Shown here piece by piece: positions 152 through 28,816 of a DNA stretch of 64,000 nucleotides. Positions within the stretch are counted from its first letter, which is position 1, and every line of letters begins with the position of its first letter. This stretch comes from a virus (lineage: Duplodnaviria; Heunggongvirae; Uroviricota; Caudoviricetes). The stretch is taken from the IMG/VR virus record IMGVR_UViG_2562617057_000010, positions 1 through 64,000 of that record, one strand, 5' to 3'. The position numbers were made by a program, and so were the translations under genes. The notes below the pieces were generated by a model. That model was given only the letters and a program-made list of their open reading frames with translations, was not told the DNA's origin and ran no database searches.

Positions 152-227
<76 letters not shown>

Positions 228-281
228 GTTTAAAAGACATCGGCGTCAAGCGGATGTCTGGCTGAAAGGCCTGAAGAATTT

Positions 282-355
282 GGCGCGTTAACAAAGCGGT
301 TATGTAGCGGATTGCAAATCCGTCTAGTCCGGTTCGACTCCGGAACGCGCCTCCA
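282..355 (+). tRNA. cysT: tRNA-Cys (anticodon GCA)
   Basis: 74-nt tRNA, anticodon loop GATTGCAAATC, T-arm GGTTCGACTCC, 3' CCA. Confidence 0.95.
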
Positions 356-367
356 CTTTTTTCCCGA

Positions 368-454
368 GCCCGGATGGTGGAATCGGTAGACACAAGGGAT
401 TTAAAATCCCTCGGCGTTCGCGCTGTGCGGGTTCAAGTCCCGCTCCGGGTACCA
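368..454 (+). tRNA. leuZ: tRNA-Leu (anticodon TAA), long variable arm
   Basis: 87-nt class II tRNA, anticodon loop TTTAAAATC, T-arm GGTTCAAGTCC, 3' ACCA. Confidence 0.95.
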
Positions 455-834: not shown

Positions 835-1725
835 TCAGGCTGCCAGATCATCGTTTCCGATGGAAGCATAATAAGCTTTTTCTGCTTCTGCCGGAGGAGT
901 ATGGCCCAGCCTTTCCAGCAATCGTCGATTGTTATACCAGTCCACCCACGTGAGTGTGGCCAGTTCCACTTCTGCACGGTTTTTCCAGCTCTTACGGTGT
1001 ATTACCTCCGCTTTGTAAAGACCATTGATGCTCTCCGCCATCGCGTTGTCATACGAGTCGCCTGTACTTCCTGTTGATGCCAGTAATCCGGCTTCCTTAA
1101 GCCGCTGTGTGTAGGCCAGCGATACATACTGAGAACCTTTATCACTGTGATGGACCGTGCCGGACGGTCGACGGGCCCATAACGCCTGCTCCAGTGCATC
1201 CAGCACGAATGTCGTTTCCATGGACGATGAGACCCGCCACCCCACGATGTATCCGGCAAACACATCAATGATGAACGCCACATAGACGAAGCCCTGCCAT
1301 GTGCTGACGTAAGTAAAATCAGCCACCCACAGCTGGTCAGGTCGTTCTGCCACGAACTGACGGTTTACGCGGTCGCCTGCGGCAACGGCTTTCCGGCTGA
1401 TGGTCGTACGGACCTTTTTACCCCGGAGAACACCGGCAAGTCCCATAACCGCCATGAGACGTGCCACAGTGCATCTGGCCACTCTGATGCCTTCCCGTAA
1501 CAACTGACGCCAGACTTTACGCACACCGTATACCTTGTGATTTTCATCGTATACGCGCTGTATCTCTTTCTTCAGCCAGTCATCGCGCTGCGCACGGGCA
1601 CTGCGTTTATCCGGATGATGTCGCTGTTGCTGACAGTGGTAATACGTTGACGGGGCAATATGCAGTTCGCTGCATAGCGGTCCGACCCCGTACTGCTCAC
1701 GCAGCTTATCCAGCAGTGGCATCAT
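835..1725 (-). CDS. IS3-family transposase OrfB (DDE integrase core)
   Basis: 296-aa ORF with rve-type DDE motifs ([22 protein letters not shown]); overlaps orfA by 4 bp. Confidence 0.9.
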
Positions 1726-2048
1726 TTTTTCCAGAGGCGGTCGAACTCCGCCTTCGCAAAATAAGCGGAAGCCTGGCGAAGGATATCGTTACTGCGGCGC
1801 AGTTCACGATTTTCACGCTCCAGCTCTTTCAGACGCTGACGTTCAGCGGTGGTGAGCCCTCCATCACCGCCCCCGGTATCCCGCTCATGCTGGCGAACCC
1901 AGACACGCAGAGTCTCCGGCGTACAGCCAATCTTTGGAGCAATGGAACAAATTGTCGCCCATTGTGAGTCATATTCGCCCTGACTTTCCAGAACCATACG
2001 GACTGCCCGTTGACGGACTTCGGGGGAAAAACGAGTATTTTTAGTCAT
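1722..2048 (-). CDS. IS3-family transposase OrfA (HTH, leucine zipper)
   Basis: 108-aa ORF, N-terminal HTH and C-terminal coiled coil ([13 protein letters not shown]); A-run at overlap with orfB consistent with -1 frameshift site. Confidence 0.9.
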
Positions 2049-7472: not shown

Positions 7473-9479
7473 TTAAATACTCGCTACGTTATACCAGGTG
7501 CCATTAATCAGTTTTTGCAGCGGTCGGTAATACACACCGTTGACGTTATCCGCTGAGTTACGGCCGGTATCCGATATCGATATCCCTGACAGCCCGTGTC
7601 CCGAAGGTGCGCAAAATCTCCACGAAACGGTGTTACTGCCGGGGCTGTAATACATTTCATGACCATACCGCACATCCTGTACCCCCTCAGTTCGATGTTT
7701 ATAGCGGGCATCGAAGTTTCCGTAATTTAACGGAATTACCTGTCCGTTTACAGCGAATGTGATACTACCATCGGTATTTCTCTGGCTGTAGAAATGCCAG
7801 CCGGAATCATCACCAAGCTCTGCAACAACAGGCCTGGATGGATTACCCCACAAATAAAACGCTGCATTTTTCGTGGAGTTGTTGGCGCTGGATAACGTGA
7901 ATTTTTTAGCATTTCCGGCCTGAATATTCTTAAAAGCAATAGTCACACCATTCTGAAAACGGAATACTCGCTGACCATTTGCATAAACATCAAGCAGACC
8001 ATCGCCATTTTGTTTAAACCCGGTATCGTTATCTCCTAAAACGATTGAACTTCCACCTAACGCATTCGTCGTACCAATTCCAAGACAACCATTAATGACG
8101 GCATTAACCAGAATATTTAGTGTATCCCATTTGAGATTCATCAGGTCTTTAACCCGGCCGCCAGCGAGGCGGTGTCTCCATTTGAAATACTCATTGCCGT
8201 TGTCACCTGTTTCAAACCACATGTATGAATCAGTATCGCTGTCGGCATCATTTTTAAAACCAATCTTTGCCCAGTCAGTATTTCGAATCCAGGCAAGGGT
8301 TGAGTCGTTTTCAAAAGTAAGTCCACCGGACAAGGTATCGCCTGTCTTTTGGACTGCGTTACCAGCCTTGTTTACCGTTTCCTGTAAACCAACGTTCTGG
8401 ATAAACAGCGGTTTATCGGGAATATCTGCTCCGTTCTGATTTTTTTGCAGCGCTCCTGTGATGCGGATGTCGTCACCTGCGGCTACAGTGTCCTGCGCGG
8501 TGCCAACATTAAGGGTGGCGCTGTCGCCGAGGCCCATATGCTTTCTGGCATCAGACTGGGCCTGTTCACCTTTGTCAGCAATTTCTTTCAGGTTCCCGTT
8601 ACGGGTCAGGTATTCGCCATCAAGGCGGTCATTTAATGGTTTGCGGGTTTTTCGTATATCGGTGATCTCGCCACTGTCTGATATTGTGGCGATGGGTTCG
8701 ACATAATGGGCAAATCCTGAACTGTCGGTATAGTCGGCTGTTTTCTGACTCGTCAGGCTGAATATGGCTTTATTTTCCCCGGTCAGGGTACCGGTTAATG
8801 CCGCGTCAACATAAACAGTTTGTGAAATTCCGGTGGCGTATGTCAGTGTGCCTTGTTCATCCAGCTCCACACGTAATCCGCGCAGATAGGCAATACCCGG
8901 CGCGAAGGTCGCCTGCCCGGTAGCCTGAGCGGTGAGTTTAAAGGCGTTATTAAAGAACAGGCCAGGCCCGTAGATATCCAGCGCCGCTTTGCGGGTGGCC
9001 TCGTCCATGCCGTGAAGCCGTGCCGTAAAATCAATCTGCCAGGTGCTTACTGGCGTGGTGATGCCGGTTGCGGCGCTGGCTCCGGCGTATTCCATAATTT
9101 CAGAATAAATCAGGGTATTACCCTGTTTGCCGTCTGCGGTTTTTATTTTTTTCTGAGGGTGAAGATATACCACCATACAAAGTGTATTTGTGGTGCTGCT
9201 TACCAGACCCAGCCAGTTAAAAGTAAAATCACCCGTGGACTCCGGCAGGGTAACGGAGTAGGCGACGGTGTTCTCATTTACCATTCCGTTGCGATCAACG
9301 TTCTGGCGGTGAACTATCTGTGCATCGGGGGGCAATGGTTCGTTTTCAGACGGCGTGTCGGCAATGTTCAGATCCGGGATATTTGCAAATACAAACTGAT
9401 CAATGATGATACGGTTGCCGCCTGCGGCTTCCTGCGCTTTCAGGCGCTCAAATGCTGAAGTGATAGCGCTCTGGGTCAT
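7473..9479 (-). CDS. Tail fibre protein
   Basis: 668 aa; C-terminal [11 protein letters not shown]; about 90-aa block shared with the Mu-like S protein; contains a gix-like site. Confidence 0.85.
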
Positions 9480-26964: not shown

Positions 26965-27274
26965 TATGAATAATGGTGTATTTTCAAAATCAGAAGAGCT
27001 TGCCGCCCTGCTGATTGCCGGTGGTTTGCCGAAAAAAGAAGTGCATGACTTTGTGAATTTTGTATATGAGACGTCTCATGAAAAAGCTATTGATGAGGTC
27101 ATGGCGTACCGGTTTGGCATTATTGCTGAGTCACTGAGTCCTCACTGGATTATTGAAAATCTCCGCGCTATTGCTGATGGCAACGATAAATCAGCAGCCG
27201 TTGCTGCACTGGATGTGTTACGGCAAATGAGTCTGAAATTTTATCCTGAATTTATTCTGAGGGCCGCAAAATGA
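26951..27274 (+). CDS. Early protein, unknown function
   Basis: 107 aa. Confidence 0.4.
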   Translation: MKVSDMNNGVFSKSEELAALLIAGGLPKKEVHDFVNFVYETSHEKAIDEVMAYRFGIIAESLSPHWIIENLRAIADGNDKSAAVAALDVLRQMSLKFYPEFILRAAK

Positions 27275-27573
27275 ACAATGAAGATAAATTTACTCCCCTT
27301 AATATTGATAACGTCATGGCTGAAAAAGGGATGCTGGAACGTGTTCGCGCTATCGTTGAATATGGTATTAAGCATAATCTCACCGCCAGAGAAGTCCGTG
27401 ACATTATCAACCGCGAAATGAATCGTCTGGAAACAGTAGTGGCACTGCAAAATGAAACAGCCCGCGAGGAGTACATCCGCCGCAGGCTGGGGTTATCAGA
27501 CCAGGATATTGTTACTGACGCTCATGTGTTTGGGGCTTTTGAGATCCGTCAGCATCTGGGTCTAACGAACTGA
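27271..27573 (+). CDS. Early protein, unknown function
   Basis: 100 aa. Confidence 0.4.
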   Translation: MNNEDKFTPLNIDNVMAEKGMLERVRAIVEYGIKHNLTAREVRDIINREMNRLETVVALQNETAREEYIRRRLGLSDQDIVTDAHVFGAFEIRQHLGLTN

Positions 27574-27778
27574 TAATGTCTTCCATGATCTTTGACAGTT
27601 GCATGTTTTCGCGGCGGCTTGTTCTTATTGCAGGCGCATCTTTTAAAATCTCTGCTGAAGAGCTGAAAATGGCCTGGCCCTCTTCTGCGGTGATGATCGC
27701 CTTCTTCACCAGAAGGCGCACCAGTGCTGATGCAATCGCATAACCTGCAACATCATAAGGTTGTACATTATTTTCCAT
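27512..27778 (-). CDS. Reverse-oriented small protein inside the early region
   Basis: 88 aa on minus strand with GAGAGGA SD 7 nt upstream of ATG; only opposite-strand ORF with a good RBS in the early operon. Confidence 0.4.
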   Translation of the reverse strand: MENNVQPYDVAGYAIASALVRLLVKKAIITAEEGQAIFSSSAEILKDAPAIRTSRRENMQLSKIMEDIISSLDPDADGSQKPQTHERQ

Positions 27779-27847
27779 AAAATCCTCTCTGATTGATGTG
27801 TAAATTCAGGCGGTGTTGCAGCACCGCCTCTTTCCGGAGGTACGATC

Positions 27848-28399
27848 ATGAATCGCACATCCCTGATTAAATTAATCCATGTCGCCCGTCGGGAGCTACA
27901 ACTCGACGACGACACTTACCGCGCTTTTCTGATGCAGAAAACGGGCAAAATCAGTTGCCGCGAGCTGACGGTTACGCAACTGGAACAGGTGCTCAATGCC
28001 ATGAAAGAACGCGGCTTTAAGAAGCTGAATAAATACCCCCGTCGCCGCTTTAAGGAACATGTCACACCCCGTGAGAAGGTGTATAAAATCTGGCAGCAGA
28101 TGGCAGAAGACGGTTTTATTACCGATGGCGGTGATGTGGCGCTGGACAGATATGTTCAACGCCTGACCGCGAAACGCAACGGCGGACAGGGTGTTTCCAC
28201 ACTGGCGTGGTGTCATGGCGACACGCTGCTGACAGTCCTCGAAACACTCAAGCAGTGGCACATCCGCTGTATTCGTGAAGCCTTTTCCCGTCACGGGCTT
28301 CCGTTGCCGGTCAGTCCGTCCGGTCGTGAACTGCGCGGCTATGATGCCATGACGGCGGCTTATGCCCATGCCAGAAAGACACGGAGGATGGCACAATGA
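27848..28399 (+). CDS. gemA: GemA-like early protein
   Basis: 183 aa, GGAGG SD, immediately upstream of mor, matches Mu gemA size and position. Confidence 0.65.
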   Translation: MNRTSLIKLIHVARRELQLDDDTYRAFLMQKTGKISCRELTVTQLEQVLNAMKERGFKKLNKYPRRRFKEHVTPREKVYKIWQQMAEDGFITDGGDVALDRYVQRLTAKRNGGQGVSTLAWCHGDTLLTVLETLKQWHIRCIREAFSRHGLPLPVSPSGRELRGYDAMTAAYAHARKTRRMAQ

Positions 28400-28785
28400 C
28401 GGAAGATTTATTTGGTGATTTGCAGGATGACACCATCCTGGCACATCTTGACAATCCCGCCGAGGATACGTCACGCTTTCCGGCACTGCTGGCGGAGCTG
28501 AACGATTTACTGCGCGGGGAATTGTCCCGGCTGGGTGTTGATCCTGCCCATTCACTGGAGATTGTTGTGGCTATCTGTAAGCATCTGGGCGGCGGTCAGG
28601 TCTACATTCCACGCGGTCAGGTTCTGGACTCGCTGATTCGGGATTTGCGTATCTGGAATGATTTTAACGGTCGCAACGTCAGCGAACTGACCACCCGTTA
28701 TGGTGTCACTTTCAATACGGTTTACAAGGCCATTCGCCGGATGCGACGGCTGAAATACCGCCAGTACCAGCCCTCACTTCTGTAA
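28396..28785 (+). CDS. mor: Mor-like middle-operon transcription activator
   Basis: 129 aa, Mor/C family, C-terminal HTH. Confidence 0.85.
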   Translation: MTEDLFGDLQDDTILAHLDNPAEDTSRFPALLAELNDLLRGELSRLGVDPAHSLEIVVAICKHLGGGQVYIPRGQVLDSLIRDLRIWNDFNGRNVSELTTRYGVTFNTVYKAIRRMRRLKYRQYQPSLL

Positions 28786-28790
28786 ACAGT

Positions 28791-28816
28791 AAAGCCGGTT
28801 AATCCGGCTTTTTTTA
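28791..28816 (+). terminator. Rho-independent terminator after mor
   Basis: GCCGG-TTAAT-CCGGC then T7. Confidence 0.8.

Follow-up and report, generated by a model that had tools for sequence, protein, structure and literature searches.

The stretch of DNA analysed here (hereafter the window) comprises 64,000 nucleotides (nt) of the virus record IMGVR_UViG_2562617057_000010 and holds a Mu prophage of the SfMu type. Within its early operon, one open reading frame (ORF) of 88 amino acids (aa) is read leftwards, between the homologue of Mu gene 14 (gp14) and gemA. The comparative evidence suggests that this ORF, which corresponds to gp15 of phage Mu, is a genuine leftward protein gene, forming a self-contained antisense cassette with an accessory role of the conflict type. 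We put the probability of this reading, taken as a whole, at about 0.72. It builds on features shown in silico, namely the reality of the gene, its conservation, a terminator on its own strand, its dispensability and the variability of the slot in which it lies.

Identity of the minus-strand ORF

Over 27200-27900 the window shares 99.9% identity with Shigella phage SfMu and 97.8% with Mu. A preliminary description of the window, made from the DNA letters alone, had placed an 88-aa ORF on the minus strand at 27512-27778, partly convergent with the upstream gene. The ORF is found at this position, running from ATG to TAA, and its 3' end converges with that of the gp14 homologue (27271-27573) in an overlap of 62 nt. 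The coding features of the segment are as follows.

27512-27778, minus strand: coding sequence of the gp15 family, 88 aa, ATG start, TAA stop (27512-27514)
27271-27573, plus strand: Mu gp14 homologue, 100 aa, PHROG 6075; its 3' end is overlapped by gp15 and it holds the predicted minus-strand terminator
27576-27743, plus strand: Mu_54, ORF of 55 aa, annotated in GenBank AF083977 and read here as a shadow of gp15

By tblastn, the ORF corresponds to Mup15 (gp15, NP_050619.1; UniProt Q38493) of the RefSeq Mu genome (NC_000929, 7896-8162 complement; 95.5% aa identity) and to SfMu_16 of Shigella phage SfMu (100% identity). It matches PHROG 8747 over residues 1-88 of 88, with an expectation value (E) of 1.3e-60. 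Mup15 and SfMu_16 lie on the same strand as the window ORF, have the same length, the same position between gp14 and gemA and the same overlap with gp14, and no material difference separates them from it. A longer version, named 'F-134', is present in the 1991 record of the Mu left end (M64097), and the minus-strand ORF is also called in E. coli prophages by the Prokaryotic Genome Annotation Pipeline (PGAP). The preliminary description had presumed that Mu has no such opposite-strand gene, a premise that these matches overturn. On the same grounds, the ORF is taken to be the SfMu allele of gene 15 of Mu, and its novelty is low because the gene was already catalogued; as it stands, it is a known hypothetical gene and no new kind of element. 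In the current GenBank record of Mu (AF083977), gp15 was dropped and the plus-strand, 55-aa Mu_54 was annotated instead. Over a 270-bp segment of a textbook phage, two public annotations are thus in conflict, with gp15 on the minus strand in RefSeq and Mu_54 on the plus strand in GenBank.

Conservation and evolutionary rate

Protein searches, both word-indexed and exhaustive (HMMER), returned relatives confined to Mu-like prophages and falling into three lineages. Group 1 consists of Mu and SfMu (93-100% identity), group 2 of E. coli prophages (about 50% aa and 71% nt identity, 27 complete genomes) and group 3 of Salmonella prophages (43-45% aa identity; P0009, in 56 index blocks). In all three groups the ORF has 86-88 aa, lies on the strand opposite to gemA and overlaps the end of the gp14 homologue, and the N-terminal motif QxYDVAGYx[IV]AS..L..LLV.K..IT..EG is common to them. 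A scan of genome contigs for wider homologues yielded nothing that could be confirmed. One further hit, the metagenomic protein P0006 (1438 aa; E 1e-23), was rejected as a low-complexity artefact, since this D/T-rich tandem repeat gave 12 weak matches to the acidic LDPDADG tail; it is a caution for the reading of HMMER summed scores.

The ratio of nonsynonymous to synonymous divergence (dN/dS) between lineages was 0.18-0.47, and on this measure the ORF is judged to be under purifying selection. Synonymous divergence was near saturation (dS 0.9-2.1 between lineages), and no copy that was translated had a broken ORF. The 411-nt query matched 59 E. coli genomes, and in 54 of them the gp15 DNA was full length. 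For the same genome pair, dN reached 0.37-0.41 in gp15 against 0.12 in gemA and 0.18 in gp14; by this comparison, gp15 appears to evolve about three times faster than gemA at the protein level. Absence from close relatives had been proposed in the preliminary description as a sign that the ORF was spurious. Some relatives do lack or break it, yet it is kept in three divergent lineages and in most of the E. coli genomes matched, and it is therefore better seen as a dispensable accessory gene than as a spurious ORF.

Assignment of the coding strand

The third codon positions of gp15 and Mu_54 share one phase, which makes each frame a shadow of the other. Over the same DNA, the comparison of the window with group 2 gave BLOSUM62 scores of 114 and 110 for the minus frame versus 76 and 64 for the plus frame, and dN/dS was 0.24-0.39 in the minus frame versus 0.35-0.51 in the plus frame. 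Substitutions relative to the 71%-identical group 2 affected 15, 23 and 35 of 54 sites at minus-frame positions 2, 1 and 3, respectively, which is the usual order in coding DNA. When codon usage was scored as a log-likelihood ratio (LLR) of a coding against a shadow model, gp15 reached +18.2 over codons 1-67 and +22.8 over all 88 codons, and Mu_54 scored -2.8. The reference, 67-codon windows of real prophage genes, had a median of 22.6 and a 5th percentile of 5.7, with 97% of the windows above zero; the codon usage of gp15 is typical of the genes of this phage. In the Salmonella lineage the minus frame is intact at 86 aa, whereas the Mu_54 frame contains an internal stop and has no start codon. 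In group 2 the stop of Mu_54 is displaced by six codons, within the most conserved part of gp15. Both GC and AT skew flip over 27500-27900. Shadow runs free of stops for at least 55 codons are ordinary in this phage (53 runs in 35 genes; P about 0.2 per position), and for this reason the open Mu_54 frame carries no weight.

If Mu_54 were the real gene, translationally coupled to gp14, the 88-aa ORF would be its shadow. This is the call of the current GenBank annotation, and it would keep the operon unidirectional; the ATG of Mu_54 lies 2 nt past the gp14 stop, and the in-frame start beside that stop, together with an open frame, is also found in the 71%-identical E. coli lineage. The frame is, however, broken in the Salmonella lineage where gp15 is intact, its stop shifts among lineages within the most conserved gp15 part, and it has the lower BLOSUM62 score and a negative LLR on the same DNA. 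An open shadow frame of its length is expected by chance, its homologues are near-identical copies only, and it leaves both the Shine-Dalgarno (SD) sequence and the terminator of the minus strand (see below) without explanation. We consider this assignment quite improbable, and we attach even less credence to the idea that both strands code in Mu/SfMu and in E. coli group 2 as a true antisense overlapping pair. In these two lineages each frame is open and has a plausible start, and transposable phages of Pseudomonas offer described examples of antisense overlapping genes with exclusion activity (PMC9936078). Against such dual coding, the plus frame has been lost in the Salmonella lineage, its codon usage is shadow-like, its conservation is weaker, and an open shadow frame requires nothing more than chance. 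Taken together, the comparative evidence favours the original minus-strand call over Mu_54, and gp15 is very probably a real translated gene. The opposite-strand gene suggested by the preliminary description is hence upheld by its retention in three divergent lineages, its periodic substitutions and its coding-type codon usage.

Signals flanking gp15

The sequence signals around gp15, and the neighbour from which it is read away, are listed here.

27783-27789, minus strand: SD sequence GAGAGGA (TCCTCTC on the plus strand), 4 nt upstream of the gp15 ATG
27448-27489, minus strand: predicted intrinsic terminator, with the hairpin at 27458-27489 followed by UUUCAUUUUG at 27448-27457
27809-27828, either strand: hairpin GGCGGTG-TTGCAG-CACCGCC, between the gp15 start and the gemA SD
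27848-28399, plus strand: gemA (Pfam GemA, E 9.1e-31), right-hand neighbour, reading away from gp15

The strong SD claimed earlier was located 4 nt ahead of the ATG. Every lineage retains an SD at a distance of 4-9 nt ahead of the start, and so do the non-orthologous genes that fill the same slot in phages D108 and Kp4866-3. The predicted terminator begins 23 nt beyond the gp15 stop, within the gp14 coding sequence, and its hairpin folds at -21.3 kcal/mol (z score -1.7). Its position equals 7839-7873 of Mu, where the record bears a 'TransTermHP terminator' with no strand specified. Groups 2 and 3 and D108 likewise have, on the same strand, a hairpin followed by a T-run, their stem sequences being different. 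In an alignment of the four sequences, 40 of 40 cells were paired, against 38-48% in slid controls; both sides were altered in 2 of the 10 pairs and one side in 4 of the 10. As it comes from four sequences and lies inside a coding region, this covariation is supportive of a conserved terminator, and not conclusive. A scan of the region against Rfam matched no family.

The stable hairpin that had been described just before the gemA ribosome-binding site was confirmed by folding. It reached -18.0 kcal/mol on the plus strand (z score -2.5; 2 of 200 shuffles folded as well) and -15.2 kcal/mol on the minus strand (z score -2.7). On the plus strand it is followed by the T-rich TCTTTCC (27829-27835), the gemA SD (GGAGG) and the gemA ATG (27848). 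The palindrome occurs as a single copy in the window. Its 7-bp arms are invariant and its 6-nt loop is variable among Mu, SfMu, YpM_3, D108, groups 2 and 3 and the Klebsiella phage Kp4866-3, and it is retained in three E. coli prophages that lack gp15. The plus-strand T-rich run and the gemA SD always stand 3' of it, the quality of the T-run varying up to T8 in a Salmonella copy disrupted by an insertion sequence (IS). In the Mu record a 'semi-early promoter' is placed over the palindrome. By its sequence context it reads best as a plus-strand attenuator or terminator ahead of gemA; it is possibly an operator-like site, and it may form a 5' structure of the gem mRNA. On the right, the variable slot ends at this palindrome. 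A role as the terminator of gp15 was rejected, since on the minus strand the palindrome lies upstream of gp15 and the T-run is found on the plus strand only.

A variable antisense slot between gp14 and gemA

The place of gp15 is taken by other minus-strand ORFs in some phages, two of which are listed below.

D108 (GQ357916), 7853-8212 of the record (locus L006, 1111-1470), minus strand: ORF of 119 aa with SD AAGGAA, absent from the D108 annotation
Kp4866-3 (OK490420), about 1066-1460 of locus L031, minus strand: ORF of about 130 aa, just left of the palindrome, with a weak match to DUF2513 (E 0.014)

The unannotated 119-aa ORF replaces gp15 in both D108 and Mu_3F6 and overlaps the end of gp14. 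It matches PHROG 38610 (E 8e-83) and, in the part aligning with the gp15 motif, PHROG 32893 (E 5e-7). Members of the gp15 family hit PHROG 32893 too (E 2e-4 to 5e-8), and because of this shared match the D108 ORF is probably a distant homologue of gp15; direct comparison of the two by hhalign gave a weak result.

E. coli JCKP02 and the Yersinia phages YpM_3/23, which form plaques, share a clean deletion of 223 bp between TGAT repeats; in the E. coli prophages FDAARGOS_1058 and elppa5, gp15 is lost through larger deletions. Since YpM_3/23 form plaques while carrying the 223-bp deletion, gp15 is, as judged from these genomes, dispensable for plaque formation. In FDAARGOS_1058 (locus L036, about 880-945) the deletion leaves only the opening few codons of gp14 and of gp15, fused to one another, so that both convergent genes are lost and the gp15 SD and start, as well as the palindrome, are kept. 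One E. coli copy of gp15 is shortened to 76 aa and is divergent past residue 58. In a contig of Salmonella Aberdeen (locus L029, 3236-4444), an IS256-family transposase (Transposase_mut) lies inside the 3' part of the gp15 homologue, and this insertion accounts for the aberrant 90-aa protein P0008. Among the genomes compared, the contents of the slot are variable but always antisense.

Features of the gp15 protein

The predicted product of gp15 is small, acidic, soluble and mostly helical, with no catalytic motif, and for these reasons it probably acts by binding another protein. Comparison of the AlphaFold model with known folds returned generic helical bundles only, and a profile search found no PDB sequence with an E below 0.1. 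The homology search called for by the preliminary description recovered Mup15, SfMu_16 and PHROG 8747; neither Pfam nor NCBIfam gave a significant match, and PADLOC-DB, searched with three members of the family at E up to 1, contained no matching defence protein. The PHROG families matched by gp15 are all without an assigned function, and no paper on gp15 was found in the literature searched. The Mu gene cim presumably adjoins B/kil and not gemA, and on that assumption the identification of gp15 with cim was rejected.

Residues 22-40 of gp15 (LLVKKAIITAEEGQAIF) resemble the L..L...G.IT.EE motif of the SHOCT and SHOCT-like domains (PF22746, PF20612). The matches are weak and below the cut-off, both in group 2 (E 0.0014; 18.6 versus 27 bits), where the sub-threshold match spans residues 23-40 of the member searched, and in group 3 (E 0.16; 12.6 versus 24 bits), and the window protein itself has no Pfam match.

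Comparison with known systems

The morons of lambdoid phages (HK97 gp15; lambda bor, lom and rex) are extra genes with a promoter and a terminator of their own that are expressed in the prophage. Mu gp15 resembles them in being small, dispensable, present or absent among relatives and provided with its own predicted terminator, and in an orientation that is independent of the lytic operon and antagonised by it. It differs from them in that no promoter of its own was identified, its base composition matches that of its left-hand neighbours, and the cassette lies antisense inside an operon instead of between operons. A moron was among the possibilities named in the preliminary description, beside an anti-defence or immunity factor and a regulator expressed in the lysogen. 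The accessory-like behaviour stood up, as gp15 is missing from close relatives, fast-evolving and replaced in D108 and Kp4866-3; a minus-strand promoter of its own was not found.

The OOP antisense RNA of lambda acts on cII. The gp15 unit is like OOP in that it runs leftwards over the 3' end of an early gene read rightwards and stops at an intrinsic terminator, and unlike it in being filled by a constrained ORF of 88 codons with an SD, with no promoter identified.

In the B3-like Pseudomonas transposable phage Fc02, the genes olg1 (sie1)/gene 10 lie opposite the early operon, are transcribed in the lysogen and confer superinfection exclusion (PMC9936078). Like gp15, they belong to a transposable phage and face its early lytic operon in antisense, but their locus is beside the repressor and ner, and that of gp15 beside gemA. 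By analogy, the Fc02 case may serve as a precedent for an antisense gene in the early region; it is not evidence for gp15.

Proposed working and alternative explanations

Leftward transcription would arrive from the gemA side and cross the palindrome. Ribosomes would load at GAGAGGA-N4-ATG (27778) and end at the TAA at 27512-27514, within gp14, and RNA polymerase would stop at the intrinsic terminator at 27448-27489, inside gp14. Rightward early transcription from Pe would collide head-on with the gp15 unit and, because of this collision, gp15 would be expressed mainly in the prophage, being made chiefly while Pe is repressed or barely active. The protein would then play a non-essential role in conflict between phage and host or between phages. 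The timing of expression, the mode of binding and the biological role are the parts of this scheme that we infer. A conflict-type, moron-like role is suggested because gp15 is dispensable and fast-evolving and because D108 and Kp4866-3 have other antisense genes in its place. An accessory or conflict role in the prophage state is nevertheless a tentative assignment, somewhat short of even odds, and any one specific role (exclusion or defence, anti-defence, tuning of immunity) is unlikely when taken singly.

The functional product might instead be a cis-antisense RNA that pairs with the gp14-gemA early mRNA and tunes gemA and mor, or RNA processing, the ORF being incidental or secondary. Whatever gene fills the slot, the terminator that lies 23 nt beyond the ORF is retained, compensatory changes included; there is a 62-nt convergent overlap with gp14, and the unit is located just upstream of mor, the activator of Mu middle transcription. 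Such an RNA would leave unaccounted for the constraint observed at the protein level (dN/dS 0.2-0.5, the N-terminal motif, and the conserved SD, start and length); moreover, phages without the whole segment are viable, and neither a promoter nor an Rfam family was found. We regard the RNA as an improbable product, although a somewhat better candidate than Mu_54. It is very improbable, on a par with dual coding, that neither ORF is expressed and that the segment is a decaying remnant or a spacer between gp14 and the palindrome. The segment is indeed dispensable and often deleted, and the failure to find a minus-strand promoter would suit a remnant. Decay is hard to reconcile, however, with full-length DNA in 54 of 59 matching E. 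coli genomes, with an ORF intact in all translated copies of three lineages at dS 0.9-2.1, or with periodic substitutions and a codon usage typical of phage genes.

Several observations weigh against the preferred reading of gp15 as a leftward, protein-coding antisense cassette. The main gap in the transcription-unit model is that no sigma-70-like promoter was detected on the minus strand within 700 nt upstream of gp15 in any lineage. In the scans, which used both consensus and weight matrix, the best scores were 7.1-7.6, against a median best of 7.9 in shuffled sequences. One candidate of group 2, TTAATC-17-TATCGT, was rejected, as it degrades to GATCGT in Mu/SfMu and its -35 box is not conserved in group 3. 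The unit may depend on a promoter that is weak or requires an activator. Neither transcript nor ribosome-footprint, proteomic or phenotype data on gp15 were found in the literature searched, and no homologues were found beyond the Mu-like prophages of E. coli, Shigella and Salmonella. The composition of gp15 shows no anomaly relative to its left-hand neighbours (GC 0.46, versus 0.45 in the 600 nt to the left; gemA 0.54). The AlphaFold model is moderate, with a mean predicted local distance difference test (pLDDT) score of 68 and helices at residues 10-25, 31-47 and 61-72. Structure prediction cannot discriminate between the strands, because gp15 and Mu_54 score about alike (mean pLDDT 67.9 and 66.2, respectively). 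With only 8 variant sites, polymorphism within lineages does not suffice for a test of selection or for telling the frames apart, and the curators of AF083977 preferred the plus-strand ORF.

Other features of the window

The remaining genes of the prophage early region that frame the locus are given below.

19001-19621, minus strand: repressor c, a Mu-type prophage gene
From 19729, plus strand: ner, followed by A, B and further genes up to gemA
28396-28785, plus strand: mor, downstream of gemA

As had been described, the early genes are otherwise on the plus strand, with ner, A, B and the following genes up to gemA and mor all reading in this direction. Directly after mor, at 28791-28811 on the plus strand, a strong hairpin resembling a terminator, AAAGCCGGTTAATCCGGCTTT, precedes a T-run; in the Mu record, the corresponding place immediately downstream of mor is annotated as a terminator and middle-promoter region. 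About 300 bp to the left of repressor c, near the left end of the prophage, an ORF of 181 aa (18154-18699, minus strand) encodes a protein that we take to resemble the P2-type head-completion protein, so the insertion site of the Mu-like prophage may lie within another prophage. Upstream of the prophage, there are three transfer RNA (tRNA) genes at 152-451 (plus strand) and an ALIL pseudoknot, the frameshift element of the IS3 family, at 1651-1767 (minus strand; 120 bits).

Significance for Mu and related phages

What is new here is the comparative case for restoring the minus-strand call, together with an antisense slot that has an embedded terminator. A wider reading, which we hold to be doubtful, is that the early operons of muviruses possess a fixed antisense accessory slot into which lysogen-expressed genes for exclusion, defence or anti-defence, or the tuning of immunity are swapped. 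On that reading, the slot would be bounded on the right by the invariant palindrome or attenuator and on the left by the leftward terminator inside gp14, and the swapped genes would be the gp15 family, the 119-aa ORF of D108 and the ORF of about 130 aa of Kp4866-3. If the products of the slot were exclusion, defence or anti-defence factors, this would add usefully, if incrementally, to prophage biology. If the wider reading were true, the paradigm phage Mu would gain a previously unrecognised locus of lysogenic conversion.

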